Source of the DNA: Telmatocola sphagniphila
GTDB lineage: Bacteria > Planctomycetota > Planctomycetia > Gemmatales > Gemmataceae
Length of the DNA: 32,000 nucleotides
Direction: 5' to 3'
NCBI RefSeq assembly: GCF_018398935.1
Contig: NZ_CP074694.1
Span: forward strand, 1,890,001-1,922,000
In this document: piece after piece, positions 2 to 31,846 of the stretch
Position numbering within the stretch: the first letter of the stretch is position 1
Layout: every line of letters starts with the position of its first letter
Notes under the pieces: generated by a model
What the model was told of the DNA's origin: nothing
Databases searched by the model: none
Seen by the model: the letters and a program-made list of their open reading frames with translations, nothing else
Program-made: the position numbers and the translations under genes

Positions 2-688
2 CTGGCCGACATCAAGCAGAAGGCCGACCGCGACACGATCGTTTCGCGCTTCCGCGGCCTGCAGCAGGACCTAGATGCCCTCGGCATCCGGCTTCGCCTG
101 CTGGAATGGCTCTACCGCAGCGAGTGGACCGTCCCGGTCGATCCCGAACTGAGCGAAGTCTCCGGGGAAGACGCCGTCCAGGAAACGGCCAAGCTCTTCG
201 CCGGGGTGTTCGCCTCGCGCCGCCTGAATCTCAATGTGGTCAATCAGGGGGGCTGGCTGAGCGTCGATAAGGACACGCTGACCGCGGCCCTGATGGGCCT
301 GCTCAATTTCGCCTGCAAGGCCAGTAGCGGCGATCGCCTGGAAGTCAAAATTGAAAAACTGCCGCCGACGCCGGAACTCACCGAAGGCTGGATGTGCTTC
401 ACCCTCTCGGGCGAATGGCAGCCGACCGTCTGGAACCAGACGGCCAGCATCGACTCCCTGAGCAATGAAGCGCTGATTGCGGACGCGACTTTGGGTCTGG
501 CCGTGGCCAACCGGGTCGCCCGGCGCTTGCAAGGGGTCTGTCGGGCCGAGGAAAGTTCCGATTTCCGCCGCTGCATCAAGCTCTACGTGCCGACCCGACT
601 GCCCAGTCCGATCACGACGGTTTCCGAAAACGAAGTGGGCCCCCGCGAAGAACTCTGTCTGGGCTGGAAGCTCGCCAGCGTTGTCTAA
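2..688 (+). CDS. Histidine-kinase-like ATPase (HATPase_c) protein, C-terminal part; the 5' end lies upstream of the window
   Basis: Frame 2 is open from the window edge (LADIKQKADRDTIVSRFRGLQQDL...) to TAA at 686-688. Track ORF 206..688 is only its GTG-initiated tail. N-box-like LMGLLNFACKASSGD and G2-like DATLGLAVANRVARRL are present. The G1 (DxGxG) position reads TLSGEW, so it is degenerate. Confidence 0.7.
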   Translation: MADIKQKADRDTIVSRFRGLQQDLDALGIRLRLLEWLYRSEWTVPVDPELSEVSGEDAVQETAKLFAGVFASRRLNLNVVNQGGWLSVDKDTLTAALMGLLNFACKASSGDRLEVKIEKLPPTPELTEGWMCFTLSGEWQPTVWNQTASIDSLSNEALIADATLGLAVANRVARRLQGVCRAEESSDFRRCIKLYVPTRLPSPITTVSENEVGPREELCLGWKLASVV

Positions 689-731
689 AGAGCCCCAACT
701 TACGAATGCCATCCCCCTGGAGAATCGATCC

Positions 732-1523
732 ATGAGTGCCGAGTTGAACGCCAGCCTCGATCAGCCGACCGAAGATGCCCTGCAGCTGGTTTGGAAAGAA
801 CAAGCCGATCTCAAAGCCGTCACGCTGTTGCGACGCTCGGGCATCACCGACGGAACGATCCATCGGACCATGTCGGTCGTCCACGGCACGCAGCCGTATA
901 AGCACAACCACTACCACGACGAGGAGTTCTTCCGCGCCGACCCCGCCAAGGGAACCTTGAGTAATCCCTACGGCCAGCGCATGATGCGGGTCTCCGAGGA
1001 TTTCGTGGTGGCCCTGCTGGGGGCTTTGGAAGACGAAGTCGGCCAGGGGGGCGCTCGCGAGATCATGTACAAGTGCGGCTTCCAGTGGGGCCTGCGCGAC
1101 ATGAAGCATTTTCTGCCGCGCATGCAGGCCGAGTTCGAAGCCGAACTGGACCGGCAGCGCATGGACTTCCTGGCGGAGACCTGGTGGTGGCCGTTGACCA
1201 TCACCGGCTGGGGCACCTGGCGCTACGACTTCCGGCAGCGCGATAAGGGCCTGCTCTTCATCGAGCTGTACGAATCGGCGGTCGCCCAGTCGGTCGGCGA
1301 TATCGGCTCGGTGATCTGCTACTTCTACGCCGGCCTGTTCGCTTCGACCTTCAGCGTCTTAAGCAAGCGGTCTCTCGGCTGCGTCGAGATGCAGTGCTAC
1401 GCCACCGGCGAAGACTACTGCAAGTTCGTAATTTCCGACTACAAGAAAGTCGATGCCGCGGCGTTCTGGCGGGGCGAAGGAGCCACCGCGAGCGACATCA
1501 TGAAACGCCTCCAAAACATGTAA
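732..1523 (+). CDS. V4R (4-vinyl-reductase-like) domain protein
   Basis: ATG at 732 is in frame with track ORF 477..1523, whose upstream extension overlaps the preceding CDS and is Arg/Pro-rich junk. It is preceded by GGAGAA. The C-terminal LGCVEMQCYATGEDYCKFVISDY resembles the V4R signature (E..C...G...C.F.I). The GxG-rich middle (YKCGFQWG, TITGWGTW) is typical of the family. Confidence 0.7.
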   Translation: MSAELNASLDQPTEDALQLVWKEQADLKAVTLLRRSGITDGTIHRTMSVVHGTQPYKHNHYHDEEFFRADPAKGTLSNPYGQRMMRVSEDFVVALLGALEDEVGQGGAREIMYKCGFQWGLRDMKHFLPRMQAEFEAELDRQRMDFLAETWWWPLTITGWGTWRYDFRQRDKGLLFIELYESAVAQSVGDIGSVICYFYAGLFASTFSVLSKRSLGCVEMQCYATGEDYCKFVISDYKKVDAAAFWRGEGATASDIMKRLQNM

Positions 1524-1537
1524 TTTCCGGAGAGACC

Positions 1538-2185
1538 ATGCTCGATACATCCCGTTCGCTGCGACTGAAGGGCAATTTTTTCGCTCGTCCGGACTGGTTC
1601 CGCACCGACGTGACCCGGGGCGTGACCCGCAATCCCCTCGGGGAACGGGTCTGCACGCTGACCAGCGACTTTCTGCTCGGCTTTCGCGATGCCATGATCT
1701 ACGAATGCGGCCCGGCCGCTTCGGCCGTTCTGAAATCGGCCGGCAAGCGCTGGGGCGGCCAGTTCGCCCACCGCCTCGATAAGGCGGTCAAGGAATTCTA
1801 CGGCACCCCCTGGCGGGAATTGCAGCGCGGCGTGCAGATCACCGTGCTGACCGAAGCCTTCGCCGCGCACGGCTGGGGCCGGTTGTCGGTCGATTGGGAA
1901 CGCTGGCCCGATTATCTGGGCGTGCGTCTGGAAAACTCGATCTATCCCGATCTGATCCTGCAGGCGGACAAGCCCTCGGACGCGCTGTTCGCCGGCTTTT
2001 TGAAATCGATTTTCGAATATCTGCTGGAAACGCAGCTGGAGTGCCTGCAGACCGATTGCCCCACCTGCGAAGCGACGGCGAGTGGTTTCGTTCTGGGTAC
2101 GCCGGCGGCGATCCAGGACGTGGAAGCGCGGTTTGCGAAAACGTTGGGACGGGAAGGGACGCTGCGCGAAGTGCTCGCGTCCTGA
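1538..2185 (+). CDS. Second, more divergent V4R-like protein
   Basis: ATG at 1538 lies 14 nt after the previous stop and is preceded by GGAGAGA; the track start 1394 overlaps the upstream gene. The layout parallels the first V4R protein (GERVCTLTSDFLLGF..., GWGRLSVDW..., C-terminal LECLQTDCPTCEATASGFVLG), but the terminal motif is degenerate. Confidence 0.6.
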   Translation: MLDTSRSLRLKGNFFARPDWFRTDVTRGVTRNPLGERVCTLTSDFLLGFRDAMIYECGPAASAVLKSAGKRWGGQFAHRLDKAVKEFYGTPWRELQRGVQITVLTEAFAAHGWGRLSVDWERWPDYLGVRLENSIYPDLILQADKPSDALFAGFLKSIFEYLLETQLECLQTDCPTCEATASGFVLGTPAAIQDVEARFAKTLGREGTLREVLAS

Positions 2186-2218: not shown

Positions 2219-2689
2219 ATGAATCCCTGGCTGATTACTCTCGTCAAGGACGCCAACGAGCGATTGCTGACCGAAAAGGAAGTGGAACGCTTTATTGCCT
2301 TTCTGGACACCCTGCCCGCTCGGATCAAGCTGAGCGAGGACCTGGAAAAGTTCGAGCCGGAAATCCTCGCGGCCCTGACCAAGGAACTGCCGGCGGCCTA
2401 TCCCGACCGACCCGGCTACAGCCGCCTGGTGATTCAGGACGTCGTCGAATCGCTGCGGCACCTGTTCGTTTCGGTCTTCGTGGACGAACCCGAATTCCTG
2501 AAACTGCGCTGGACCGATTCGCTCGTGAGTTCGCTGCGGCAGTCGGGACTGGACGAGGAGTGGGCCGCCGACATTTACAAGGCGATCGACGAGAAACTCA
2601 AAAAGTTGCTGCGCGGCCCGTCGCTGGAACTATACCGGCCGGCCATGGATCAATTGCTCGACAGTCTGGTCGTTTCCGTAGCCGTCTAA
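2219..2689 (+). CDS. Phycobiliprotein-like globin (phycobilisome-protein fold), cysteine-free, paralog A
   Basis: 156 aa, all-helical-looking sequence. The N-terminal DANERLLTEKEVERFIAF, then ...ILAALTKELPAAYPD..., then RLVIQDVVESLRHLF follow the order of phycobiliprotein landmarks (D.qGRyL..tEl; ..yP..; .RD..yyLR) as I remember them. AAGGA Shine-Dalgarno upstream. The protein has zero Cys. Confidence 0.6.
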   Translation: MNPWLITLVKDANERLLTEKEVERFIAFLDTLPARIKLSEDLEKFEPEILAALTKELPAAYPDRPGYSRLVIQDVVESLRHLFVSVFVDEPEFLKLRWTDSLVSSLRQSGLDEEWAADIYKAIDEKLKKLLRGPSLELYRPAMDQLLDSLVVSVAV

Positions 2690-2707
2690 CCCCTTGCGGA
2701 GAATCTC

Positions 2708-3229
2708 ATGCTTCTGTCCGTGATGACCAAACTCGATGGACGTTACCTCAAAAGCCGCGAACGCGCGGACTTAAAGGCCTACATCGGCACCATTCGCAAC
2801 CGCCGCACGGCCTACGATGAAATCCGCCGCAAGGCGCTGCCGGTCGCCGAAGGCGTCATCGCCGAGCAGCGCAAACGCTACCCCGATTTTGCCAAGATCC
2901 GGCCGCAGGGCTTCGAGAAGGGAACCCGGGACATCCACTCCCTGACCAACATCGCCGCCAACATGATGCTGCAGGAAGCGACCGAATTCTACGACAGCAT
3001 GTTCACCGAGTGGTACCGCACGATCCTCAAGGCGGTGCATATGTCGCCGCAATTTTTGCAGGACACCTTCAAGTCCTGGCAGGTCCAGCTCGAAGTGAAT
3101 CTGACCGCCGACACGCACGCCCTGCTGCGGCCGTACGTGCAGCATCTGACCGACTTTCTGTTGAACGTGCCGGTCCCCGTGAAAGATGAAACCGGCCGCC
3201 GCTTGGCCCAGATTCCCGCCTCCGTCTAA
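2708..3229 (+). CDS. Phycobiliprotein-like globin (phycobilisome-protein fold), cysteine-free, paralog B
   Basis: 173 aa. KLDGRYLKSRERADLKAY, VIAEQRKRYPDF, EKGTRDIHSLTNIAANMML and WYRTILKAVHMSPQF line up with phycocyanin/allophycocyanin landmarks (D.qGRyL, ..yP.., KCaRDigyYLR, y..al..lg.p). The canonical bilin-attachment Cys position is Gly (KGTRD). The protein has zero Cys. Confidence 0.7.
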   Translation: MLLSVMTKLDGRYLKSRERADLKAYIGTIRNRRTAYDEIRRKALPVAEGVIAEQRKRYPDFAKIRPQGFEKGTRDIHSLTNIAANMMLQEATEFYDSMFTEWYRTILKAVHMSPQFLQDTFKSWQVQLEVNLTADTHALLRPYVQHLTDFLLNVPVPVKDETGRRLAQIPASV

Positions 3230-3240
3230 GGAACTTTCCC

Positions 3241-3861
3241 ATGAGCTTACTGCACCGCGCCCGCACCGCGTCGGGCGATCTGCACCGCCGCATCGAAAAC
3301 ACGCCGCTGGCCCAGCAGCTGGCCCGCGGCACCGTCGAGCGCGACACCTACCTGCGCCTGCTCGAAGTCCTCCTGCCGATTCACACGGCGGTCGAAGCGC
3401 AACTCGCGCATCCCCCCTTGAACGTTTTGACCAATCCGAATCTGCCGCGGCGAAGCCTATTAATCGCCGACCGGGCCGCGCTGGCCGCGCCCGCCGAGCC
3501 TTTCGAATCGGAGCATCTGTCCGCCTGGCAGGAGGCCCTGCAGGAGGAGGAAGCGGTCTCCCCCTGGGTCTGGGCCGGCGCCCTCTACGTCCTCGAAGGC
3601 TCCCGGATGGGTTCGCGGATGCTGGCCAAAACCGTGGCGGCGGCGCTGCAACTCCCCCTGCAGCCCGGGCTCGGTCTAGACTACCACCTCGCGGGGTTAA
3701 GCGACGGCGGCCAAACCTGGCAGGAATTCAAAGCCTTTTTGGAAAACGCCCCAGTCACGGCGTCGGAGAGCGACAGCTTCGCCCGCGGCGTCGGACGGAC
3801 CTTTCAGGTGATGTTCGACGTCTACGAAGAGCTTTCGGGCGCCACCGCGGCACGATCTTGA
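3241..3861 (+). CDS. Heme oxygenase (biliverdin-producing, BphO/HO1 family)
   Basis: Proximal-His region TASGDLHRRIENTPL (compare T..sH...En). YLRLLEVLLPIHTAVEAQL matches the Y..lL...y..y..lE motif. ALYVLEGSRMGSRML matches the distal-helix YvlEGS.lGG motif. It starts 11 nt after the preceding stop. Confidence 0.8.
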   Translation: MSLLHRARTASGDLHRRIENTPLAQQLARGTVERDTYLRLLEVLLPIHTAVEAQLAHPPLNVLTNPNLPRRSLLIADRAALAAPAEPFESEHLSAWQEALQEEEAVSPWVWAGALYVLEGSRMGSRMLAKTVAAALQLPLQPGLGLDYHLAGLSDGGQTWQEFKAFLENAPVTASESDSFARGVGRTFQVMFDVYEELSGATAARS

Positions 3862-3887
3862 TTCCATGACGGGAAACGGAGAGCGGG

Positions 3888-5507
3888 ATGAAACGGCTGC
3901 ATTTGAAACCCCTCGGCGAAAACCTGCTGGTGGAAACCGGCGCGACTCTCCTGTCCACGCTGCTGAGCCGGCAGATGAACGTCAAAATGTCCTGCGGCGG
4001 CCGCGGCTTCTGTTCGACCTGCCGCGTCTCGATCAAACAGGGGATGGATCAGCTCTCCCCGATCGAGAATCGGGAACGCAAGACCCTCTCGCTGGTCGCC
4101 GGCGTCACCTCCGAATGCCGGCTGGCCTGCCAGTCGCGGGTCGAAGGCGAAGGGATCATCGTCGAAGTTCCCAAAGGGATGTACATCGAGCGGGCCGAGG
4201 ATCTCCTGAGCCTGCTCGGCCAGCGCGCTCCGGAAAATATCCTGCACCCGATCCATGGTTCGATTCTGATTCCCAAGGACAAGATCATCACCCGCAGCCT
4301 GCTCGAACAGTCGCGCACCCTCGAGAAGGAAGTGGAGCGGATGAAGAACCGGGCCGTCGGGGCGGGCGAATCGGACAGCCAGCTGAATTCCTCCTCGATC
4401 TCGAATTTCCGGTTTATGGCCACCGGCAGCGGCCTGGCGCCCAGCCAGGGGCTCGACTCCTTCACCTCGACGTCGATTCTGAATCTGACCACCCGGATGG
4501 ACTTTTCGAAGCACGCTTCGAAAACCGGGAATCCCTCGGCGCCGTCGTTCTCGATGCACTCGAGCGATCAGAAACTGCCGACGATCCATTCCGAAGAATC
4601 GACGCTGCCGCCCTACCTGACCCGCCCCGAACGCAAAGCCGTCGTCCTCGAGCCGGGCGCGACCGTGGGCAAGTTCCTGCTCCTCGAAGAGATCGGTAAA
4701 GGCGGCGTCGGCCTGGTCTATCGGGCCCTGCACACGAAATTGAAATCGATCGTGGCGATGAAGTTCCTGAAACCCAGTTCGCCCGGCGGCACCGGGGCGC
4801 TCCTGGAGCGCTTCGGCAACGAGGCCCGGCTCTTGGCCCAGCTCAATCACCCCAACGTGGTCCGCGTGCTGGACTTCGAAGACAACTCCGCCCTCCCCTA
4901 CGTGGTCATGGAATTCGTCGATGGCAGCAGCGCCTCGGAACTGCTCAAACAGCAGGGGCGGCTGCCGCTGGCCAAGGTCCTGAGCATCCTGTCGCAGGCG
5001 ACCCGCGGGCTGATGGCGGCCTTGCACCTGGGCATCATCCACCGCGACGTCAAGCCGGCCAACATCCTGGTCGACAAGCTGGGGATCGCCAAGCTGGTCG
5101 ATCTGGGCCTGGCCGTGCAGATGCAATCGGACGACGGCACGGAACTGGGCAAGGGCCGCGGCGCCGAAGGGACCGCCGGCTACATGTCGCCCGAGCAGCT
5201 GCAGGACGGTTCCTCGATCGACCACCGCTCGGACATCTACTCGCTGGGGGTCACCTTCTATCACCTCTTGACCGGTCGCCTGCCTTTCACCGGCAGCAAC
5301 CGCAACGAAGTCTTCTTCAAGCACATGACGGCGACGCCGACCGCCCCGCACGAGATTTGCCCGGATATGCCCGTGGAGGTCTCGCAGATCATTCTGAAGA
5401 TGATGGAGAAGCATCCCCTCGATCGGCCGCAAACCTACGAAGAGGTCCTGGCCTTGTGGGACACGGTGGCAGGAAATGCCAAGGAACTGGTGCGCAGCGC
5501 GAAGTGA
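3888..5507 (+). CDS. [2Fe-2S] ferredoxin domain fused to a Hanks-type Ser/Thr protein kinase
   Basis: N-terminus: C36-x5-C42-x2-C45 (SCGGRGFCSTCRV) plus C77/C81 (SECRLAC), a ferredoxin-like 2Fe-2S ligand pattern. A Ser-rich linker follows (~aa 150-250). C-terminal kinase motifs: GKGGVGLVYRA, VAMKFL, HRDVKPANILV, DLGLA, GTAGYMSPEQ. GGAGAG lies upstream of the ATG. Confidence 0.9.
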   Translation: MKRLHLKPLGENLLVETGATLLSTLLSRQMNVKMSCGGRGFCSTCRVSIKQGMDQLSPIENRERKTLSLVAGVTSECRLACQSRVEGEGIIVEVPKGMYIERAEDLLSLLGQRAPENILHPIHGSILIPKDKIITRSLLEQSRTLEKEVERMKNRAVGAGESDSQLNSSSISNFRFMATGSGLAPSQGLDSFTSTSILNLTTRMDFSKHASKTGNPSAPSFSMHSSDQKLPTIHSEESTLPPYLTRPERKAVVLEPGATVGKFLLLEEIGKGGVGLVYRALHTKLKSIVAMKFLKPSSPGGTGALLERFGNEARLLAQLNHPNVVRVLDFEDNSALPYVVMEFVDGSSASELLKQQGRLPLAKVLSILSQATRGLMAALHLGIIHRDVKPANILVDKLGIAKLVDLGLAVQMQSDDGTELGKGRGAEGTAGYMSPEQLQDGSSIDHRSDIYSLGVTFYHLLTGRLPFTGSNRNEVFFKHMTATPTAPHEICPDMPVEVSQIILKMMEKHPLDRPQTYEEVLALWDTVAGNAKELVRSAK

Positions 5508-5708
5508 GCGGTGGGCCGGGCGAGAATCGAAAGAAACCACGGGGGAAACGAGGCGTCGTCGCGAAACGAGGGGCACCGGCGGGAGAACAGCCGGTCGACG
5601 AGCTGAAGAGGTGAGATAGAAGAACGGAGTTAGGTCATTTCAAGCGATTTCTATAGCCCTTTCCTTACTGGGGAAGCCGTTCGAGTCGCCTTAAAGACAA
5701 AACCTGAT

Positions 5709-6884
5709 TCAAGATGTGGGACCGACGGCGCGGCCGGAGACGGAGAGGCGTTTTCCGATCAGCGCCCGTCGAATGCGCGGGGTATGGCGTTCGCAGAGAT
5801 ACCAGAAGGCCGCGCCGATCCCCAGCAACAGGCTCAAAAATCCCAGGTACTGCAGAACCGCCGGGAGATCGGGAAAACACTTCTGCGGCAGATAGAAGTG
5901 CGTGGCGATCAGAAGCACGACCGGGAAGTGAATGGTGTAAAGCGAGTAGGACAGGTCGGCGGCGGCGATGGCGATTTTCTCAAGTGCCGGTCCCAGAATC
6001 GGTATGCGCGGCCGCGGCCATTTGGCCAGGACCAGACAAAGTGTGGCGAAGGCCAGCCCGACGACCAGATCGCTCGAGACGCCCAGTCCTTCCTGCAGCC
6101 GCAGCGATTTGCTGTAGCCCAGGGACGCTCCAAAAAGCCCCAGCGTGACGAGGAGCGCAATCCAGCGGCGACGCGTCGAGAAGCGCGGCTGGATCCGGTA
6201 AACCAGAACGCCCAGTAACCAGATCAGATAGCCCAGCCAGATGCCCCGCGGCAACCCATAGGCTAACGCCGCGATCGCGCCCCCCGCGAGCAGGCGCCGC
6301 CCGAGGCCCGCCGGTTTCCCGGAAATTCCGAGCAGCAATGTGCCGAGCGGAAAGAGCACGTAGTACCAGAACTCGTTGGCCAGACTCCAGAGCGGGCTAT
6401 TGGTTCCGAAGGTCGGCACCCCGATCGTCTGGACGAAGCCGAGATTCCCCAGGAAGGTGACCAGACTCGTCGAGTAGGACCCGTCGGTTCGGGGTCCGGA
6501 GGTCCAGAGCGGGGCGTATTCACCCTGGGCCACCTCGGGATGCGCCGAGAGCGTGTACGAATCGATCAGGTAGGTCAGGACCAGCGCCGGGAGAAGCACC
6601 CCCCAGAGCCGGGTCAGCCGCGTGGTGCCATAGGCCGCCCAGGAGAAGCGGTCCCCCGCTTTGAGCACCGAGCCGCCGACGAACATGCCGCTGAGGACGA
6701 AGAAGACCATCACCGCTTCGTGGCCGAGCCCGGTGAGGCCGTAGAGCAATTTTTGGAAGAGCGTCGGGGCGGTCAATTCGGCGTAGTCGACCAGCGCCAC
6801 CGCCCGCAGGTGCCCGGCGCAGACCAGAATGGCACTGAGCCCCCGGACCAGATCCAGCCAGATATAGCGCTCGTCCTGTTTCAT
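5709..6884 (-). CDS. Membrane acyltransferase, family 3 (O-acyltransferase of polysaccharide)
   Basis: Multi-TM protein with the N-terminal MKQDERYIWLDLVRGLSAILVCAGHL signature of Acyl_transf_3. ATG at 6884 is preferred. The track start 6989 adds an Arg-rich 35 aa extension and remains possible. Confidence 0.75.
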   Translation of the reverse strand: MKQDERYIWLDLVRGLSAILVCAGHLRAVALVDYAELTAPTLFQKLLYGLTGLGHEAVMVFFVLSGMFVGGSVLKAGDRFSWAAYGTTRLTRLWGVLLPALVLTYLIDSYTLSAHPEVAQGEYAPLWTSGPRTDGSYSTSLVTFLGNLGFVQTIGVPTFGTNSPLWSLANEFWYYVLFPLGTLLLGISGKPAGLGRRLLAGGAIAALAYGLPRGIWLGYLIWLLGVLVYRIQPRFSTRRRWIALLVTLGLFGASLGYSKSLRLQEGLGVSSDLVVGLAFATLCLVLAKWPRPRIPILGPALEKIAIAAADLSYSLYTIHFPVVLLIATHFYLPQKCFPDLPAVLQYLGFLSLLLGIGAAFWYLCERHTPRIRRALIGKRLSVSGRAVGPTS

Positions 6885-7028
6885 GCTTGGGAAAAAGAGG
6901 CGAGCGAAAGAGGAACCCGCGAGGGACCCCGCGGCCCTTCGCCCGAAACGGCGAAAAAGCCGCCCAGCGAGAAGACGGGAACGCGGCATCCCGTCAGTGG
7001 GAGAAAGAGTTAGGAAAAAAATCGTCGA

Positions 7029-8003
7029 CTACTTGGCTTCGGCCTTCAGATCGGCTTCGACCATCATGCGGACCAGTCCCGGGAAGTCGACCTTTCGTTC
7101 CCAGCCCAGTTTTTTGCGGGCCAGGCTCGGATCGCCGATCAACAGATCGACCTCGGCGGGGCGCAGATACTTCGGGTCGACTTCGACGTACTTCTGCCAA
7201 TCCAGATTCACGTGATCGAATGCCAGCTCGACGAATTCCTGAACGCTGTGGGTCTCCCCCGTCGCGATCACAAAATCGGTCGGCACGTCCTGCTGCAGCA
7301 TCAGCCACATCGCCTGCACGTAATCGCCGGCAAAGCCCCAGTCTCGCTTGGCCTGCAGATTGCCCAGGGAGAGTTTTTGCTGCTTGCCGAGCTTGATGCG
7401 GGCGACCGCATTGGAAATTTTGCGGGTGACGAATTCGAGGCCGCGACGGGGGCTTTCGTGGTTAAACAGAATCCCGGAAACCGCGAACATGTTGAACGAT
7501 TCGCGATAATTGACGGTGATCCAGTGCCCGAAGACCTTGGAGGCCCCGTACGGACTGCGCGGATAAAAGGGCGTCTCCTCGCGCTGCGGAATCTCCTGTA
7601 CTTTGCCGAACATTTCGCTCGACGAGGCCTGGTAGAAGCGGGGCGACTGCCGCGAGTAGCGGATCGCTTCGAGGATGCGGTTGACCCCGACGGCGGTCAT
7701 TTCTGCGGTGGCGAGCGGCATATCCCAGCTGGCGGTGACGAAGGACTGCGCGGCCAGGTTATAGACTTCCGAGGGCTGAATCGATTCGATGAGGTTGGCC
7801 ATCGACGATTGATCGAGCAGATCGGACGGGTGCACGGTGAGGCGATCGAGAATATGTTCGATGCGGCTGAGATTGGGCGTACTGGAGCGGCGGATCATGC
7901 CATGGACCTGATAGCCCTTCTCCAGCAGAAATTCGGCCAGGTAGGAACCGTCCTGGCCGGTGAGGCCCGTGATCAAAGCGATTTTCTTCTGCGATACTGC
8001 CAT
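7029..8003 (-). CDS. gmd: GDP-mannose 4,6-dehydratase
   Basis: [36 protein letters not shown]..., [15 protein letters not shown] and [12 protein letters not shown] are diagnostic GMD motifs. ATG at 8003 is preferred over the TTG at 8015 given by the track. Confidence 0.9.
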
Positions 8004-8214
8004 GGGATCTCTCAATCTCCGGAAATCGTACCAGGTCTTCCAAACGGCGCTTCGAGGGACTTTTCAGAACTTCGCGGGGCGGTTTGCCGAGTCTCCTTCG
8101 GATTTTACAAAACCCCGCGGAGAAGTCTTCCGACGCGGCAGAGATTTCGGGGGAAGGGCCAACCGAAAGGAAGTGCGAGGGGAGTTTCGCAAAGCGAAGC
8201 CCGGGGAAGATGCC

Positions 8215-8775
8215 TTAAGCGCTCGGCCAGCCGTCGCGTTTTTTCAGCGGGCGGGCCGGATTGCCGACGCAGACCATCCCGGCGGGAAGAGAGGAGAAGA
8301 CCGAGGCGCGGGCGCCGACGACGCAGCCGCGACCGATCGTCACGTTGGGACCCACGAAGGTATCGGCGGCCAGCCAGACATCGTCCTCGACGGTGATCGG
8401 CGGCCGCAGAAGCGGCATATGGGGTTGCGTAAAATCGTGGCTGCCGGCACACAGATGAGCCAGCTGACTGATCGTCACCCGTGCGCCGATTGTGATCGGC
8501 CCCAGGCAGTACAGAATCGCCCGATCGCCGACCGAGGAATTGGCTCCGAGGGTTAAATTCCAGGGGATTTCGATTGTGACGGTCGGTCGAATCCGAGCTG
8601 TGCGATCAATCTGGGCCCCAAAGAGTCGCAACAGAGTGTTCCGCCAGCGATAGCACCCGCGCGGGCTGCACCCAAACAGCGTCGATTGCACGAGGCCCCA
8701 GAGGGCGCGGGCGATCTTTTCCCGGAAGGTCCAGGGGCTGATATGGCGACGGTCGGCCGGATCGGGGGGGGACAT
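8215..8775 (-). CDS. Hexapeptide-repeat O-acetyltransferase (WcaF/colanic-acid-acetyltransferase-like)
   Basis: C-terminal left-handed beta-helix repeats: ITVEDDVWLAADTFVGPNVTIGRGCVVGARASVFSSLPAGMVCVGNPARPL. The N-terminal region is like WcaF. Its ATG abuts the stop of the upstream GT2 gene (8775/8776). Confidence 0.8.
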   Translation of the reverse strand: MSPPDPADRRHISPWTFREKIARALWGLVQSTLFGCSPRGCYRWRNTLLRLFGAQIDRTARIRPTVTIEIPWNLTLGANSSVGDRAILYCLGPITIGARVTISQLAHLCAGSHDFTQPHMPLLRPPITVEDDVWLAADTFVGPNVTIGRGCVVGARASVFSSLPAGMVCVGNPARPLKKRDGWPSA

Positions 8776-9717
8776 CTATTTCGCAGTCTTTTCTTGCAGC
8801 CGCAATTCGTGGAATTTAGCCAGCGAGATAAAATCGTACCAGGCCATCAGCCGGCACATCACGAAGCCGGCGTAGCCGTCCCGGAAGCCGCCTTTGAGGA
8901 GATAGCCGTAGAGAAATCGCAAGAGCGGCCGAAAGGGCATTTTTCGGGTTTTGGCTTTCAGCCAGCGCTTGCGGGCGATCGGCCCGCCGAAGAGCGAAGG
9001 CTTCACGCCCCCCTCGTCTTTGGCGAGCATCGCGTGCGCTTCCCAGGTCGAGTAGCGATTGTGTTTTTCGACCCAGACGCTCAGATTGGGATAGGCGTAG
9101 TGCAGAAAATCGTGCTTCAGATAACCCGCCTCCCCGGTTTTGAGCACGATGTGCTCGTGGACTTCATTGTCGCCGGAGCCGGTCTGGCCGAGATTACCGA
9201 TCCGCTCGTACCGCCCGAGGGCATGCTTGAACAGTCGCACGTTATAGGAGGGGTAATAGCCGCAGTGCTTGATCCACTGTCCGAGGAACATGAAACGGCG
9301 GTTGAGCCAGTAGCCATCGCCGCAGCCGTTGCCGGGGGGATATTTTCCGGTGACTACCTGTTCGATTTCCTGCGCCAGTTCCGGCGTCATGTACTCATCG
9401 GCATCGAGGATCAGCACCCATTCGTTGCGCCAGGAGACCTGTTCTAAGGCCCAATTTTTTTTCTTGGGCCAGCCTTCGGCGGAATAGTGAAACTGGTAGA
9501 CCTCGGCGCCGAGGGCTTCCGAGAGAGCCACCGTCTGATCGGTCGACTGGGAATCGACCACGACGATCTGGTTGGCCCACTGGAGCCGGCGTAGACACTC
9601 CTCGATGTTCGACTGTTCATTTTTGACCGGAATCAACACGCTGACCGGAACGTTCTTAGGCGGCCAGGGGATCGTCGAATTCGCTTCAGGACTAGACATC
9701 GATCCAAACCATTTCAA
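8776..9717 (-). CDS. Glycosyltransferase family 2
   Basis: VSVLIPVKNEQSNIEECLRRL...VVVDSQSTDQT...ILDADE is the classic GT-A/GT2 N-terminal domain. Track start 9717 is TTG; an ATG at 9699 (MSSPE...) is an equally plausible start. Confidence 0.8.
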   Translation of the reverse strand: MKWFGSMSSPEANSTIPWPPKNVPVSVLIPVKNEQSNIEECLRRLQWANQIVVVDSQSTDQTVALSEALGAEVYQFHYSAEGWPKKKNWALEQVSWRNEWVLILDADEYMTPELAQEIEQVVTGKYPPGNGCGDGYWLNRRFMFLGQWIKHCGYYPSYNVRLFKHALGRYERIGNLGQTGSGDNEVHEHIVLKTGEAGYLKHDFLHYAYPNLSVWVEKHNRYSTWEAHAMLAKDEGGVKPSLFGGPIARKRWLKAKTRKMPFRPLLRFLYGYLLKGGFRDGYAGFVMCRLMAWYDFISLAKFHELRLQEKTAK

Positions 9718-9782
9718 CTATTGGGGGCGGTAACACTGGGAGAAAGAGGCCTCGAACCGGAGAACGTTGGGGGTGCGGCCCC

Positions 9783-10904
9783 TCAGCGGCGGGCCTGCGC
9801 GACGACCGAGCCATACAAGTCTTCGAATTGACCGATGACCCGGTCCCAGGAATAGCGCGAGGTGACTAGCTCCCGTCCGGCCGGTCCCATGGTCTGGCGG
9901 GCCTGGGGGTTCGAAAGAATTTTATCGAGGGCCCCGGCGATCTGATCCGCATCGAGATCGGTGACATACCCGGCTCGAGAGGATTCCACTTCGGGGAAAT
10001 GGCACGCTTTGGTGATCACGACCGGAATTTGGGCGGCAAGGGCTTCCAGAATCGCCACGCTGAAACCTTCCTGGCGGCTGGGGAGAACAAACACCGCCGC
10101 GCCCAAGAGGGCCGTCTGCTTCTGTTCGCCATACAGGGGACCGGTGAGAACGACCCGCTCCGTGAGGTTCCGAGACGCGATCAGTTTTTCGAAATCCGCC
10201 CGCGCGCCGTCGTCCGGACCCGCGACCACCAGCTTCAGAGACGGATGCGCGGAGGCGATCTTCGCAAAAGCTTCGACTAGATAATCGAGGCCTTTTTTGA
10301 AGTGCAGCCGACTTAAAAAGAGCAAGAACGGGGCCACGTCGCCCAGGGCGTAGCGCTGCCGGAAATTCGCAAGGGCCAAATCGCTCGGAGCCGCGGCAAC
10401 CTCGATCCCGTTGGGGATAATGGCCGCTGGAGCCGTAATTCGGAGAGTTTTCGTCAGATCGGCCTCGTCCGAGTTGAGAAAATGGATGGCCCCGGCCTGA
10501 TCCAGAAAACGCTTGACCACCAGTTGCAGAAACAGCTTCTTTTTCAGGCGCTTCTGCGACAAACTCCAGGGATCGAGCATGCCGTGCGGTGAGAGAACAT
10601 AGGGTTTCTGGAGTTGGCGGGCCGCCCGAATCACCTGGAGTAACGGACGATCCCAGACCCCGTGCAGATGCACCAGATCGAAAGACTGAATCCGCGTGCT
10701 CTGGAAACCCGGGTTCCAGAAAAAGTCCCACCAGCGGCTGGGGGAAAGCTTCTGTGCTGTTTCCAGGTCCGTAGTGGGCACGATCTCGGCGGCCATCGCC
10801 GCCTGCAGTCCCCGCCGCTGTTGTTGGGCCACCAGCGACCGAACCGCGGAAGCCGTTCCGCCCGTGGACGGATCCAGAGAATGCACGACGTGCAGGACTT
10901 TCAT
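9783..10904 (-). CDS. Glycosyltransferase family 4 (GT-B, Glycos_transf_1)
   Basis: MKVLHVVHSLDPSTGGTASAV... N-terminus and C-terminal ...FVLPSRQEGFSVAILEALAAQIPVVIT (E-x7-E-type motif). The ATG is preceded by GGGGAGG. Confidence 0.8.
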   Translation of the reverse strand: MKVLHVVHSLDPSTGGTASAVRSLVAQQQRRGLQAAMAAEIVPTTDLETAQKLSPSRWWDFFWNPGFQSTRIQSFDLVHLHGVWDRPLLQVIRAARQLQKPYVLSPHGMLDPWSLSQKRLKKKLFLQLVVKRFLDQAGAIHFLNSDEADLTKTLRITAPAAIIPNGIEVAAAPSDLALANFRQRYALGDVAPFLLFLSRLHFKKGLDYLVEAFAKIASAHPSLKLVVAGPDDGARADFEKLIASRNLTERVVLTGPLYGEQKQTALLGAAVFVLPSRQEGFSVAILEALAAQIPVVITKACHFPEVESSRAGYVTDLDADQIAGALDKILSNPQARQTMGPAGRELVTSRYSWDRVIGQFEDLYGSVVAQARR

Positions 10905-10940
10905 CGCCGCCTCCCCTGGCTCTGGCCGGGACAGGGTGGC

Positions 10941-12302
10941 TTACGCCGAGGCATGCGGATTCCGGGGAGCATTCAGCTGCGGATTCACAAACTCGAAAAA
11001 CAGAACGCCGAGATAGGCGAACAAAAAGGGAAAGAGCACCAGACTGGTGATGTCGCGGCCCATATTGAAGGTCAGCCCCAGCCCGATCAAAAACAGGGCC
11101 AGCCGGTGCTGCAGATAGCGCTGACTCCAGAGCTTGGCGAGGATCTGCACCCAAATTCCCATCAGGAGCGCCGCGGCGGCCGGCCCGAGGATATCCCCAA
11201 AATTGCAGACCCCCTGTCCGATCATGCCGCGCGAGATGGTCGCAAACACGCCGTGGTCTACACCGGACCCGCCGAAGCCGCGCATGATCGCGTAGTTGAT
11301 CCCGATCATTGGCTTATCTTTCCAGATACCCCGAGGCACGAACGCGGCCAGCTCGGCCAGATAGGACTCCCCCCATTCCTCGGTCATGACCCGGGTCGTC
11401 AGGAACGATCGGATATAGCAGAGTTCCTCGAACATATTGACGTCGGTGCGGTTCTCCGGTCCCGCCTGCACCTGCGGCTCGCTATTGAGAGCCTTGACGA
11501 TCGAGGCGGAACCCTTTTCGCGATTGCTTTGAATGAACGCAAACCAGCCGGAAATCACAATCAGCAGCGTGGTCAGAATGACCGCTTTTTTCGCGAAGGC
11601 GTCCCGGGAGATAAAGATGTAAGAGAAGACGCCCGGGAGGATCACCGCCAAAATCCCGCTGCGAGCTCTCTGAAAGAGATAGGCCTCGATTGCAATCAGA
11701 AATAAGATCAAAGACAGGTAACGCAAATTGCTGGAATAGAAGGTGACGAACTGAATCCCCAGCATGCCGACGGCGGCCACGTGACAGTAGCCGCAGATGG
11801 AGATCAGAAAGTCGAATTTGGTACCGACCGCGCCGCGCGACCAGATGAATTGCGGATCGCTCGAAAGCGGTGGAAAGAAAATCGAGAAGAAATCCCCGTC
11901 GAGCATCCATAAGCCGATCAGCGTCAGGAACGCCCAGACCGCGAAGACGCTTGTGAAGACTTTTTTCTCAAAGTCGAGGCGCTGCTGTTCATCGACGAAA
12001 AAAAGGTTCGCCTCCGGATTCCTCTCGTACTCCGGCAGGAAAGCCAGATAGCCCCGAAAGACCAGGAGGAAGGTCAGCACTTGCAGCAGGGAGCCCTCGA
12101 CGAGGTCGAAGCCGAACTTGAGATTGTAGTACAGGATCCCGTTTTGCGTGATCTCGTAGAAATACCAAAAGCCGATGGTAAAGTAGACGATCAGCGCCGG
12201 CCGGCTCCAGGTCCGGTCCAATTTTCGGACGGCCTCCACGACCAGCAGCACCAGAACAAAGAGGTTCAGCAGAAAGAAGGCATTGAACTCGAACATAGTC
12301 AC
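10941..12302 (-). CDS. Polytopic membrane protein, probable oligosaccharide repeat-unit polymerase (Wzy-like)
   Basis: About 10 or more hydrophobic segments with a large loop (NSEPQVQAGPENRTDVNMFEEL...VPRGIWKDKP). It sits among GT genes in a locus that also has a Wzx-like flippase. Wzy families are too divergent to assign from motifs, so the call is by context. GTG at 12302 or ATG at 12296. Confidence 0.55.
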   Translation of the reverse strand: MTMFEFNAFFLLNLFVLVLLVVEAVRKLDRTWSRPALIVYFTIGFWYFYEITQNGILYYNLKFGFDLVEGSLLQVLTFLLVFRGYLAFLPEYERNPEANLFFVDEQQRLDFEKKVFTSVFAVWAFLTLIGLWMLDGDFFSIFFPPLSSDPQFIWSRGAVGTKFDFLISICGYCHVAAVGMLGIQFVTFYSSNLRYLSLILFLIAIEAYLFQRARSGILAVILPGVFSYIFISRDAFAKKAVILTTLLIVISGWFAFIQSNREKGSASIVKALNSEPQVQAGPENRTDVNMFEELCYIRSFLTTRVMTEEWGESYLAELAAFVPRGIWKDKPMIGINYAIMRGFGGSGVDHGVFATISRGMIGQGVCNFGDILGPAAAALLMGIWVQILAKLWSQRYLQHRLALFLIGLGLTFNMGRDITSLVLFPFLFAYLGVLFFEFVNPQLNAPRNPHASA

Positions 12303-12317
12303 CTGAGGTCGGTCGGG

Positions 12318-13427
12318 TTAACGCACCCAGCGAAGGTACTGATCGATCATCCGGGCCGGCGTGAACTGTTCCACATAATCGAAGGCCGTAGGGACGGTGT
12401 GCGCGGACGACTCGCGATTCTGAATTTTATCGAGAATCGCTTCCGCTAGAAGCTCCGGCCGCTGGGGAGGCACCAATTGGCCCAAGCGACCGCCCTGCAG
12501 CAGTTCCCGGCAGGCCGGCACATCGGTGGCCACCACTGGCAGTTTTGCCGCCATCGCTTCCAAAAGAACGCTGCCCAAGCCTTCGTTGATCGTTGTAGAG
12601 AATACGAACAGATCGGCTAAGCCCAGCAATTCGGGCACATCCGAACGCGTGCCCAGAAAGGTGACCTGTTCGCGAATTCCCAGCCGATCGGCGAGTTGCT
12701 CCAAGTCGCCGCGCAGACTCCCCTCCCCGACCAGCCCCAATCGGAAATTCGGGCAGCGCGAAACAATCGAGGGTATCGCTTTGAGGAGCGTCTCGTGGTC
12801 TTTGTGTTTCTCCAGCGTCGCGACCATGATCGCGGTGAAGAACTTCCCGTCTTTTACGATCTCTTGCCGCGCCCGGGTCGCCCGGGCGGAAATTTCCCGG
12901 GCCCGGGCACAGTTGTAGACGGTCTGGAACAGGCCCCGGGAGACGCCTCGAATCGAACGATTGGCGTCGCGAACATAATCCGAGCAGCAGATCACTTTGG
13001 CGCGAAGCAGCGCCAGGGGCCAATAGACCGAGCAGGAAATCAGATCATTTTTGCCGCCGAGGCGCGGCGGATTCCCGGAATGCACCAGGAGTTTTTTGCA
13101 GCCCGCCAGACGGGCTCCTTCGCAGACCCAGCTCGCCATCCCGGTGACCCAGCAAAGCACGATATTGGGCCGGGTGTCGCGCACCATCCGATAGGAAGCC
13201 TGGACGATGCGCGGGAATTGCGAAAAGCCCGGCTGGAGCAGATCGTGCTCCCGGTAGGCTCGAGAACCCTTTTGTAACGGCTCTTTCAAGTCGCCCGGCT
13301 GCGAGTTTAAAACCAGAACCCCCTGCCAGAGATCGGGACGCGCCGCCAACCAGTCGAGCACCAGACGCGGCGTGCCTTCGGCGCGAGGGGTCGCCAGGAC
13401 ATGCAGAATACGAGGTTCAAAAGCCAA
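12318..13427 (-). CDS. Glycosyltransferase family 4
   Basis: ILHVLATPRAEGTP... N-terminus. C-terminal LGLVGEGSLRGDLEQLADRLG...FVFSTTINEGLGSVLLEAMAAKLPVVATDV. The start codon at 13427 is TTG and there is no upstream ATG in frame. Confidence 0.8.
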   Translation of the reverse strand: MAFEPRILHVLATPRAEGTPRLVLDWLAARPDLWQGVLVLNSQPGDLKEPLQKGSRAYREHDLLQPGFSQFPRIVQASYRMVRDTRPNIVLCWVTGMASWVCEGARLAGCKKLLVHSGNPPRLGGKNDLISCSVYWPLALLRAKVICCSDYVRDANRSIRGVSRGLFQTVYNCARAREISARATRARQEIVKDGKFFTAIMVATLEKHKDHETLLKAIPSIVSRCPNFRLGLVGEGSLRGDLEQLADRLGIREQVTFLGTRSDVPELLGLADLFVFSTTINEGLGSVLLEAMAAKLPVVATDVPACRELLQGGRLGQLVPPQRPELLAEAILDKIQNRESSAHTVPTAFDYVEQFTPARMIDQYLRWVR

Positions 13428-13445
13428 GAAGAAACTTTCCTGGAA

Positions 13446-14579
13446 CTAACGCGTCCAGAGTTCTTTGAACTCGCGGACGCAGCGGGCCCAGCGGACCGAC
13501 TCGGACCGGTGCTGAGCCGCCGTTTGCTTGGAGTGCTGCTTCGCTTCCGACTGCAGATAAGCTTCGAAACGATCGGCGATCTGAAGAGGCCCCTCGGTGA
13601 GGGCGAAGCGGAATCCGGCCTCTTCCGGGAGGGTATCGGCGGGGCCTTCGATGGCGTAACCGGCCACCGGAATTCCGACGCGCAGAAATTCGAGGGTGGA
13701 AATTCCCAAGGCTTCCCGAGCCGAAAACAGACAGCCGACGTCGCAGGATTCAAGAAATCGCAGAAACAAATCGGCTTGGGTCCGCTTATCGATAAAGCCG
13801 ACAAAGCGGACGCCGTCGCGCTGGGTTAATTCCGCGGGAGCCTCGCCGGCCGCCTGCACCTGGACCTTCCAGCCGCGGGCGGCCAATCGATCGCGTACTT
13901 CGATGACGATCGGCAGCCCTTTGCGCTTCCAATCTTTGCCGACAAATCCGAGAACAAACGGCCGATCGACCCCCGCCCGGCCCGACGGAGCTTTGGGAAC
14001 CCAGTTTTCGGGGAGATCGAGGTTCGCTCCGGGCAGCACCGTGTGCACTTTCGTGGGATCAACGCCACATTCCCGGACGAGCGATTCCGCCGTCCAAGTC
14101 CCCATGGCGATCACACGCTCCGCCAGGCGATAATTCTCTTGCTCGAGCTGGAGAACCTGTTCCCGAATATCCTTGGGAAGATTCATCTCCAAGCCCCTCC
14201 CGGAAGTCAGAGCGGCCAGAGTCGCATCGATGTAGTAACTGATTTTTCCGCCGGCCCGTTGGACCGTGCGCGCCCGGGGAAAGGTCTGATTGAAACTGAT
14301 AATCTCCTGCGCAAGGATCGCCGGCGGAATTTGCTGCTCCACGGCGTCGAGGAATTTTTCCGAGTACTGATAGCCGCCGCGGGGATGACCGCGCAACTTA
14401 CGGAAGAAATTCCATACCAGCCGCGAGCGCTGAAAGATTTCGAGATCGATTTGGCCGGGAATATTGGCGAAATTCTGTTTCTGGCACTCCGAATAAAAAT
14501 GATACGGGATACCGCTCCAGCAGTTGGGATCGGCCGTATTCCCCAGGGCAAAGATCGCTCTCCCGGTCTTCGAATTCAT
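13446..14579 (-). CDS. Glycosyltransferase (GT-B fold, family 4-like)
   Basis: C-terminal half FVLGFVGKDWKRKGLPIVIEV...FVGFIDKR...CLFSAREALGISTLEFLRVGIPVAG is GT1/GT4-like. The N-terminal half is divergent. Its ATG overlaps the upstream stop as ATGA (14576-14579). Confidence 0.7.
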   Translation of the reverse strand: MNSKTGRAIFALGNTADPNCWSGIPYHFYSECQKQNFANIPGQIDLEIFQRSRLVWNFFRKLRGHPRGGYQYSEKFLDAVEQQIPPAILAQEIISFNQTFPRARTVQRAGGKISYYIDATLAALTSGRGLEMNLPKDIREQVLQLEQENYRLAERVIAMGTWTAESLVRECGVDPTKVHTVLPGANLDLPENWVPKAPSGRAGVDRPFVLGFVGKDWKRKGLPIVIEVRDRLAARGWKVQVQAAGEAPAELTQRDGVRFVGFIDKRTQADLFLRFLESCDVGCLFSAREALGISTLEFLRVGIPVAGYAIEGPADTLPEEAGFRFALTEGPLQIADRFEAYLQSEAKQHSKQTAAQHRSESVRWARCVREFKELWTR

Positions 14580-16911: not shown

Positions 16912-16914
16912 GCT

Positions 16915-17943: not shown

Positions 17944-17974
17944 CGAGTTCGAGGCTGGGGAGGAAGGGACCAGT

Positions 17975-19162: not shown

Positions 19163-19236
19163 GGATCGAAGAATCGAGCTCTTAGGACACGGAGAAAGTA
19201 CTAGGCGAACGCGCGGGAAATCGAGATATTGACCTG

Positions 19237-20775: not shown

Positions 20776-20884
20776 AGAGCGGGGCCGCTTCTGAAAAAAA
20801 CCGGGAGGAGGAGGGAGCGAATCGGGAACGAAGGCCGAAAGCGACGTTGAAAAACGTCAGCGGCGAGGAGAGGAAAGGGAAAAC

Positions 20885-20904
20885 GGGGGCTCAGGCAAGC
20901 CCCC
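20885..20904 (-). terminator. GC-rich hairpin with U-rich tail between the epimerase and flippase genes (candidate intrinsic terminator/attenuator)
   Basis: The + strand reads GGGGGCT-CAGGCA-AGCCCCC (perfect 7 bp stem, 6 nt loop). On the - strand the hairpin is followed by GTTTTCCCTTTCC. It starts 27 nt after the stop at 20932. Confidence 0.35.
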
Positions 20905-20931
20905 GTGTGCGAGCGGGAGGACCTGTAGAGA

Positions 20932-23238: not shown

Positions 23239-23292
23239 AATCGCTACTATTCCCCAGCACAGCTCCGGCCTTGTCCTCAGATACTTCCCCAC

Positions 23293-29327: not shown

Positions 29328-29361
29328 TTTTAAAAAAAATGCACTTTAAGAAATCGGACTA

Positions 29362-29376
29362 CTCCTCTTCACCTTG
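29362..29376 (+). repeat. IS630-family left terminal inverted repeat
   Basis: CTCCTCTTCACCTTG. Similarity to the right end continues more weakly for about 12 more nt. Confidence 0.65.
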
Positions 29377-29472
29377 ATATAGTCGTTGCAAAATCTGCAC
29401 ATTCTCTAGTAGAAATTGCAATTTTGGGATAGTTTTCAATCCATTTGATTGCAGTGTTGTTGCGGCCATATC

Positions 29473-30548: not shown

Positions 30549-30555
30549 GGAGGAG
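30541..30555 (-). repeat. IS630-family right terminal inverted repeat
   Basis: The reverse complement reads CTCCTCCTCACCCTG, matching the left end at 13/15 positions. Confidence 0.65.
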
Positions 30556-30630
30556 TAGAAGGGAAAAGAAGTTCAAGCAATTTCGGAGAACGGAAATAAG
30601 ATAGAAGTACGTATTACGACTAATGCTACA

Positions 30631-31746: not shown

Positions 31747-31846
31747 ACGATATTCCACTATTCGCACAAATAGAGATTAGTTATTAGATTCGCTTATACT
31801 CGCGAGGAATCCACGTATGCGTTTAGGCATGAACTCGATTTGATAT

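Follow-up and report, generated by a model that had tools for sequence, protein, structure and literature searches.

A cysteine-free pair of phycobiliprotein-like globins in a heme oxygenase gene cluster of the planctomycete Telmatocola sphagniphila

In the chemoheterotrophic planctomycete Telmatocola sphagniphila (Planctomycetota, Gemmatales), two adjacent genes encode phycobiliprotein-like proteins, here called globin A and globin B. Both lie in the window analysed here, a stretch of 32,000 nucleotides (nt) from the complete 6.59-Mb genome of the sequenced isolate (record of 6,592,641 bases; contig NZ_CP074694.1, positions 1,890,001 to 1,922,000). Globin A (2219..2689, plus strand) has 156 residues and globin B (2708..3229, plus strand; KIH39_07595, annotated as 'hypothetical protein') has 173 residues. 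The two open reading frames share one reading frame and are separated by 18 nt, exactly as given in the initial annotation of this DNA, which had described them as a tandem, cysteine-free pair. A Shine-Dalgarno-like site (GGAG/AAGGA) is located 5' of A and of B. Orthologues with 37-77% identity remain neighbours in further genomes and metagenomes, and because they are conserved and adjacent elsewhere, A and B are real genes rather than chance open reading frames. The peptides KLDGRYL, RYPDF and KGTRDIHSL quoted for B are all present in it, and a residue count confirmed that neither protein contains a single Cys. The other genes in the window have a Cys frequency of 1.24%, at which 329 residues would lack Cys with a probability of 0.016, and each protein taken singly with one of 0.12-0.14; the absence of Cys from the pair is mildly unusual. 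One Cys, at scattered positions, occurs in 14 of 42 A-type sequences (A of the window and 41 relatives) and in half of the six closest B-type sequences (B of the window and five relatives). The conserved trait is that the canonical attachment site has no Cys, and not strict Cys-freeness.

The pair is part of a run of seven genes on the same strand, six complete and one truncated at the left edge, with gaps of 43, 14, 33, 18, 11 and 26 nt. The truncated gene (2..688, plus strand) runs off the left end of the window and encodes the C-terminal part of a PAS/HATPase_c histidine-kinase-like protein. Its product aligned with the C-terminal 236 residues of a 567-residue PAS and HATPase_c protein at the equivalent cluster position of locus L006 (22% identity, E 2e-14; L-numbers denote related loci), and both share a C-terminal GWKL motif. 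Next comes V4R protein 1 (732..1523, plus strand; 263 residues), in which an XylR_N-like region precedes a V4R domain with a conserved Cys (Pfam V4R E 2.8e-15, XylR_N E 3e-4; NCBIfam MsvR C-terminal region E 1.7e-8). The start at 732 agrees with the gene called on contig L001. V4R protein 2 (1538..2185, plus strand; 215 residues) is divergent and matched Pfam V4R weakly (E 0.0018); its orthologues in L006, L012 and L013 match V4R. Downstream of the globins, a heme oxygenase gene (3241..3861, plus strand; 206 residues) begins 11 nt past globin B. The protein matched Pfam Heme_oxygenase with E 8.4e-18 over profile positions 2-203 of 204, and its nearest solved structures were 5kzl (E 3.4e-9) and the Pseudomonas pa-HO structure 1sk7. 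Its His15 aligned to a His of the 5kzl sequence, which we take to be the proximal heme ligand.

The last gene of the run (3888..5507, plus strand; 539 residues) encodes a fusion of a 2Fe-2S ferredoxin-like domain, at about residues 1-150, to a Ser/Thr kinase (Fer2::kinase). Pfam Fer2 matched residues 8-85 (E 7.8e-8) and Pkinase residues 266-516 (E 3.7e-49); the Cys ligands SCGGRGFCSTC...ECRLAC are present and the kinase motifs VAMK, HRDVKPAN and DLG are intact. No published description of such a fusion was found in the literature on bilin-associated globins. When translations were compared by eye, the N-terminal ~150 residues of the fusion closely resembled a stand-alone 157-residue Fe-S protein of the relatives. 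A stand-alone Fer2 gene is missing in Telmatocola, where merely 43 nt (688..732) lie between the kinase-like gene and that of V4R protein 1.

Single-sequence, word-indexed homologue searches yielded six proteins for B (B included) and two for A. An exhaustive profile search yielded 188 representatives, and a peptide-pattern scan of genome contigs, with very specific patterns, found only two loci. Against the Pfam profile PF00502, with a cut-off of 22.2 bits, A scored 21.7 bits, just under the cut-off, over profile positions 7-155 of 155, and B scored 22.5 bits over about the whole 155-position profile; the L006 orthologues reached 29.8 and 46.2 bits. A profile made from the six closest B-types barely reached the phycobiliproteins (E 0.016, amid chance haemagglutinin matches), so a deeper B-family alignment was needed. 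The resulting profile of 89 representatives, clustered at 50% identity, matched ApcB, the beta subunit of allophycocyanin, in the PDB with E 9e-20, and its best 60 matches were all phycobiliproteins. The profile of the 42 A-type sequences matched ApcB with E 3.3e-7, and the listed matches were phycobiliproteins with the exception of one designed helical repeat. AlphaFold2 modelled A with a predicted local distance difference test score (pLDDT) of 88 and a predicted template modelling score (pTM) of 0.78, and B with a pLDDT of 95.9 and a pTM of 0.89. In Foldseek searches the best 50 matches of either model were all phycobiliproteins, with template modelling scores of 0.69-0.78 for A and of 0.66-0.81 (normalised to target length) for B, the latter mostly at root mean square deviations of 2.5-3.0 Å. 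These alignments covered 149-171 columns for targets of about 160-175 residues, from which it follows that the N-terminal region is retained in A and B. Profiles and predicted folds thus show that both proteins are distant phycobiliprotein homologues.

RsbR-type or heme globins occurred neither among the listed PDB profile matches nor among the best 50 Foldseek matches of A or B. A family-wide proximal-His-like residue was likewise not found, H111 of B not being conserved in the consensus of the 89 representatives. On the basis of these searches, an RsbR-type or heme-globin identity was rejected. The initial annotation had weighed phycobiliprotein likeness against RsbR-type globins or an unrelated helical family, and the profiles and folds of both proteins decide for the former. 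The paralogy of the two frames, also proposed there, is not visible pairwise (BLASTP, 21% identity, E 0.076) and emerged from the comparison of the two family profiles. In hhalign these aligned over their full length with a probability of 99.7% and E 4.6e-26; because they align end to end, A and B are true but old paralogues. The A-type evolves fast, with 37% identity among Gemmatales relatives and weak profile scores in L014 and L015.

In alignments of hidden Markov models, the residues G72-T73-R74-D75 of B stand opposite C-L-R-D of ApcF and ApcB, and in A the C-x-R-D motif is replaced by V71-I72-Q73-D74. Neither protein therefore carries the thioether Cys at the Cys-84-equivalent position: B has the Gly that had been proposed, and A has Val. 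The residue at this position is G, T, I or F in B-type orthologues, with R-D constant, and V, L or F in A-types, with a gap in one locus. Among the 42 aligned A-type sequences Q73 is nearly invariant and D74 invariant, the motif Arg being replaced by Q in close relatives and by A in L014 and L015, with the Asp kept throughout. In the 89 family representatives the canonical position is occupied by G (35), C (17), T (16), A (10), S (5) or L (4). A Cys-less site is found in 72 of the 89, so this state is that of the family majority and no peculiarity of the Telmatocola pair. R74 is kept in 80 and D75 in 86 representatives. Phycocyanins have a Tyr in the chromophore pocket (PMC8717448); at this position B has a conserved Leu. 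In the crystal structure of photocobilin, a Cys-less phycobiliprotein-like globin holds biliverdin non-covalently via the equivalent Asp, and replacement of this Asp by His weakens biliverdin binding (PMC10979010). By analogy with this crystallographic precedent, the proposal of the initial annotation that any bilin bound by A/B would be bound non-covalently and independently of a lyase is a reasonable inference.

The A/B pair was present in ten loci, the window and nine others, and in all ten A precedes B. The neighbourhoods of these clusters were checked for bilin reductases over about 8-10 kb. A module of kinase-like gene, V4R, V4R, globin A and globin B, with or without Fer2, was found in L002, L006, L010, L012, L013, L014 and L015, and each of these seven has a counterpart of the kinase-like gene at 2..688. 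In six of them (L002, L006, L012, L013, L014 and L015) a stand-alone Fer2 gene lies between the kinase-like and the first V4R gene. The fullest arrangement, in L002, L006, L010 and L012, reads Ser/Thr kinase, PAS/HATPase_c, stand-alone 157-residue Fer2, V4R, V4R, globin A, globin B, heme oxygenase and Fer2::kinase. L005, cut at its 5' end, contains a partial globin A, followed by globin B, heme oxygenase and Fer2::kinase. The likewise short contig L007, which also covers just the pair and its downstream side, has the gene of a response-regulator-PAS protein after the pair. In L013, L014 and L015, which are more distant, the order is kinase-like, Fer2, V4R, small open reading frame, V4R, globin A, globin B, and kinases are present there as well. 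L008 is a single-globin variant followed by a protein kinase; the 146-residue gene before its globin does not encode a globin itself.

The heme oxygenase gene is located directly 3' of globin B in L002, L005, L006, L010 and L012, and in the window, L002, L005, L006 and L010 the two genes overlap or lie about 2-14 nt apart. Of the full clusters, only L013 does not have it beside or close to the module. The Fer2::kinase fusion is shared by L002 (10131..11777), L005 (1643..3289), L006 (11160..12860), L010 (11894..13540), L012 (11668..13422) and L013 (964..2490). A bacteriophytochrome of about 1250 residues with PAS_2-GAF-PHY and several PAS domains adjoins the cluster in L010 (13926..17759) and L012 (13433..17194), and a sigma-54-dependent response regulator lies upstream of it in the same two loci (85..1554 and 3085..4503, respectively). 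The genes that recur around the module are thus the Fer2::kinase fusion, a further Ser/Thr kinase, the PAS/HATPase_c protein and the sigma-54 response regulator. A role in sensing or in the handling of bilin is suggested by the recurring kinases and by the two phytochromes that adjoin the cluster. No phytochrome was found in the window, L002, L006, L013, L014 or L015, and no bilin reductase (PF05996) was called in L002, L006, L010, L012, L013, L014 or L015. Lyases, linker proteins and PcyA were absent from the 32-kb window and the related loci, as were B12-binding domains from the scanned window genes, the scanned L006 proteins and the gene tables of the other related loci.

Several further observations were made in the relatives. 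In L010 an IS66-family element (TnpB_IS66, DDE_Tnp_IS66; 5707..9024) is inserted between the Fer2 and V4R genes and appears to split the first V4R gene into pieces of 107 and 179 residues. Globin B of L012 (about 10500..11019) is intact, with a D-K-I-Q-R-D motif, and was missed by the source gene caller; the heme oxygenase call of the same locus seems over-extended at its 5' end, with 286 residues compared to about 206-211 elsewhere. A small open reading frame of 70-108 residues without a Pfam match lies between the two V4R genes of several relatives (L010 9066..9278, L012 9054..9281, L013 6459..6770, L014 6515..6805, L015 6447..6773) and is absent in the window, L002 and L006. Directly 3' of the A/B pair of L014, a 752-residue protein (9022..11280) shows faint repeated globin-like stretches.

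A neighbour-joining tree with 200 bootstraps was calculated from the A-types and B-types of eight loci together with ApcB, ApcF and ApcD. The A-types formed one clade (89% bootstrap), as did the B-types (90%). ApcD, which is alpha-type, grouped with the beta-type ApcB and ApcF (94%), and A and B both fell outside this clade without forming a joint clade of their own. Owing to saturated distances, the tree is not reliable at depths beyond the A, B and phycobiliprotein clades, and a node that weakly joins A to the phycobiliproteins (27%) was not trusted. Both family profiles matched alpha and beta subunits equally. As the tree separates the pairs and the profiles match both subunits alike, the A/B pairing is a parallel duplication, independent of alpha/beta. 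The duplication is old and has been maintained as a pair; A and B represent two ancient groups of orthologues, neither of which is orthologous to the alpha or beta subunit. The suggestion of the initial annotation that the pair is equivalent or ancestral to the alpha/beta heterodimer found no support in the tree and the profile matches. Its alternative, a repurposed sensor version, fared better: the ancestral type is contradicted by the tree, and a sensor-like role other than light harvesting fits the kinases, the PAS proteins and the phytochrome found in some relatives.

Gene clusters of this kind have been described by Rockwell, Martin and Lagarias in PNAS 2023, who named their globins BBAGs (bilin biosynthesis-associated globins); the clusters contain heme oxygenase, an Fe-S protein, two V4R proteins and one or two globins (PMC10151467). 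Bilin binding without lyases was described, within-cluster duplication was noted, and Planctomycetes are among the phyla listed. The CXRD motif is found in only 'some' BBAGs, and Cys-less members had thus already been described; BBAG-2 has no CXRD and is biliverdin-specific (PMC10151467). The members characterised so far are weakly fluorescent and photoinert, and BBAG-1 was poorly chromophorylated in E. coli (PMC10151467). The light-harvesting phycobiliproteins form a separate clade, sister to BBAG-1 and BBAG-3, and the function of BBAGs was given as unknown, with a role that is not light harvesting (PMC10151467). A follow-up from 2026 still handles BBAGs solely as bilin acceptors (PMC13446030). 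The cyanobacterial slr0144-slr0149 cluster was described as a BBAG-cluster descendant without reductase and heme oxygenase (PMC10151467), and the Synechocystis Slr0144-Slr0149 proteins co-purify (PMC9880817). Telmatocola, Gemmata and Planctomycetes are not mentioned in the supplement text of the 2023 paper (PMC10151467).

The Telmatocola cluster has the parts that define this type. A phycobiliprotein homologue is linked to a heme oxygenase, which begins 11 nt after B, and two V4R genes (732..1523 and 1538..2185) as well as a Fer2 domain (in 3888..5507) accompany it. An in-cluster bilin reductase, by which the BBAG subtype is told, was found neither in the window nor in the related loci. The pair very probably belongs to the published kind of BBAG cluster and is not a new protein class. 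The initial annotation did not recognise this cluster type (PMC10151467), and it left out the telling neighbours of the pair, namely the two V4R genes upstream and the heme oxygenase and Fer2::kinase genes downstream.

The following mechanism is proposed for the cluster. The heme oxygenase, supplied with electrons from the 2Fe-2S domain, would open heme to biliverdin IX-alpha. Biliverdin itself would be the likely ligand, because no ferredoxin-dependent bilin reductase was found in the cluster or the related loci. It would be held non-covalently in the Arg-Asp pocket of B and possibly in the Asp pocket of A; no lyase would be needed, because the thioether Cys is replaced in both proteins. A and B would most likely form a heterodimer within a larger complex with V4R and Fe-S proteins, as do their Synechocystis homologues Slr0144-Slr0149. 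Globin fusions with two domains in one chain (P0040, P0068, P0075, P0086, P0152) and with four domains (P0088, P0126) occur naturally in metagenomes and provide indirect support for physical pairing. The complex would inform the Fer2::Ser/Thr kinase and the PAS/HATPase_c protein of the state of heme, bilin, redox, oxygen or light, and its role would be sensing, not light harvesting. Taken as a whole, a biliverdin-binding A/B pair that reports to co-encoded kinases seems to us somewhat probable.

Several observations weigh against this mechanism. Pfam gave no match to the 2..688 product, and the ATPase domain of this presumed partner is degenerate. A scan for promoters and terminators found nothing above chance, so that spacing and synteny are the only grounds on which the operon is deduced. 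Globins and heme oxygenase are not linked everywhere: L013 has no heme oxygenase within 8 kb, and in L014 and L015 the gene is upstream on the opposite strand. In L010 and L012 the heme oxygenase could serve the adjoining bacteriophytochrome instead of the globins. Downstream of the cluster, the remaining 26 kb of the window have no bilin reductase gene (PF05996), a result of a local check only. Having lost the motif Arg (Q, or A in L014 and L015), A may be a ligand-free partner, as far as its sequence tells. Finally, the BBAGs with demonstrated bilin binding all had a Cys and covalent adducts, in CXRD motifs in BBAG-1 and BBAG-3 and in an RGMC motif in BBAG-2 (PMC10151467).

The globins might instead serve as a bilin chaperone or buffer. 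The pair would then accept biliverdin from the heme oxygenase, whose slow product release it would ease, hold free bilin at a low level and pass the pigment on to a bacteriophytochrome or some other acceptor; the globins themselves would not be a sensor. The position of the heme oxygenase gene directly after globin B in the window, L002, L005, L006 and L010 is in line with this, as are the bacteriophytochromes beside the clusters of L010 and L012. Non-covalent binding, as implied by the missing Cys, would suit a transfer protein, and the weak fluorescence and photoinertness of the characterised BBAGs would also fit. However, six of the loci, the window among them, have no phytochrome, and the two V4R proteins, the Fe-S protein and the constant kinase partners would be left unexplained. 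Moreover, the known bphO-bphP pairs work without such globins. We regard this explanation as unlikely.

Another explanation is that A, B or both bind no tetrapyrrole at all, like the non-heme RsbR globins, and act as a pigment-free scaffold or as a sensor of another ligand. They would then be structural or regulatory subunits of a redox-sensing complex of V4R and Fe-S proteins that controls the kinases. Cys-bearing V4R domains and a kinase-fused 2Fe-2S domain could sense redox alone. The attachment Cys is missing from both globins and the motif Arg from A, the A-type evolves fast, and the poor chromophorylation of BBAG-1 in E. coli points the same way. The conservation of the motif speaks for the opposite: Arg-Asp in B and Asp in A persist in lineages that have diverged widely, which points to a pocket that still has a function. 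In the Gemmatales loci the heme oxygenase and the pair are closely linked, and the Cys-less pocket of photocobilin, with the equivalent Asp, binds biliverdin (PMC10979010). On balance, a pigment-free or other-ligand role appears rather unlikely. That the cluster is a cryptic or ancestral light-harvesting antenna, a pre-cyanobacterial state with A as alpha and B as beta in (alpha-beta) units, is hardly credible: the two tandem paralogues and a full-length fold match that covers the N-terminal region, which forms the X-Y dimerisation helices of phycobiliproteins, would suit it, but it is contradicted by the tree, in which alpha- and beta-types group without A and B and the latter form no clade, by profiles that match both subunits alike, by the missing attachment Cys, by the lack of lyase, linker and PcyA genes in the window, by the heterotrophic host and by the separate placement of the light-harvesting proteins in the published phylogeny.

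No gene for a bilin reductase, lyase or phytochrome occurs in the remaining part of the window, whose genes are unrelated to the operon. A polysaccharide biosynthesis cluster (5709..21927, minus strand) comprises an acyltransferase_3, a GDP-mannose 4,6-dehydratase, a hexapeptide acetyltransferase, a Polysacc_synt flippase and an epimerase, together with one GT2 and seven GT4-type (Glycos_transf_1) glycosyltransferases. Within it, an open reading frame of 453 residues (10941..12302) has no Pfam match. A solitary NusG-domain paralogue (22681..23292, minus strand) coincides with a local drop in G+C content (0.51) and is followed by an operon of ATP-dependent DNA ligase, Lhr-type helicase and metallophosphoesterase (24518..29327, plus strand). 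From 29000 to 32000 the G+C content drops from about 0.60 to 0.42-0.51, with several short overlapping open reading frames and a second Acyl_transf_3 gene (30631..31767, minus strand); this stretch may be horizontally acquired. No tRNA gene was found anywhere in the 32-kb window.

Returning to the proposed biliverdin-binding pair, a wider claim can be put forward tentatively, and with more doubt than confidence. The Gemmatales-type cluster could work on its own as a signalling machine based on biliverdin and redox, sensing the state of light, oxygen, redox or heme. With the same reserve, its parts would be a non-covalent biliverdin A/B heterodimer, the two V4R proteins and the 2Fe-2S domain, with the Fe-S-fused kinase and a pseudo-histidine kinase as output. 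If this were true, BBAG clusters, the unexplained slr0144-slr0149 among them, would have had such signalling as their ancestral, pre-photosynthetic function. It is from BBAG clusters that the phycobiliproteins of cyanobacteria and the synthesis of phycocyanobilin are considered to have arisen. The Telmatocola operon is a stripped-down version, and since its cluster has heme oxygenase alone, with no bilin reductase beside it, the question of the ligand narrows to biliverdin. The pairing of two globin types across a deep divergence is a useful feature, and the Fe-S::Ser/Thr-kinase fusion and the PAS/HATPase_c protein provide an explicit signalling output that can be assayed. The cluster therefore offers a practical route to BBAG function and to the question of a non-covalent biliverdin heterodimer.

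Among the known systems, light-harvesting phycobiliproteins share with A and B the fold, two side-by-side paralogous subunits and the motif Arg-Asp (B) or Asp (A). Their sequence identity to A/B is only 10-19%, and Telmatocola, a heterotroph, differs from their hosts in having no Cys-84 site and no lyases, linkers or PcyA nearby. The bphO-bphP operons likewise place a bacterial-type heme oxygenase beside bilin-using signalling proteins, and a bacteriophytochrome is nearby in L010 and L012; in Telmatocola, however, where the window has no phytochrome, the heme oxygenase is coupled to globins and not to PAS-GAF-PHY photosensors. BBAG-2, photoglobin and photocobilin are biliverdin-specific, phycobiliprotein-related globins in a signalling rather than an antenna context (PMC10151467, PMC8717448, PMC10979010). 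The V-I-Q-D of A resembles the C-x-Q-D motif of photoglobin. These globins are fused to or paired with B12-binding domains, whereas none was found among the scanned or tabulated genes of the Telmatocola-type loci. The photocobilin globin is five-helix, whereas A and B keep the N-terminal region, and the RGMC Cys motif of BBAG-2 is absent from the Telmatocola pair.

The slr0144-slr0149 cluster of Synechocystis sp. PCC 6803 also combines V4R, 2Fe-2S and phycobiliprotein-like bilin-binding-domain proteins without an in-cluster reductase. It differs in lacking a heme oxygenase, in its phototrophic host and its link to photosystem assembly or repair, and no kinase fusion is described for it. [quoted passage not shown] They carry CXRD and covalent adducts, whereas B has Gly and A has Val at the Cys position, and the Telmatocola cluster and its related loci have no pre-PcyA bilin reductase nearby. 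In Telmatocola a Ser/Thr kinase is joined to the Fe-S protein, and among the constant neighbours in loci of this type are the PAS/HATPase_c protein and further kinases. The features of this variant worth recording are thus a heme oxygenase as the only bilin enzyme of the cluster, a Cys-less A/B pair and the coupling to kinases.

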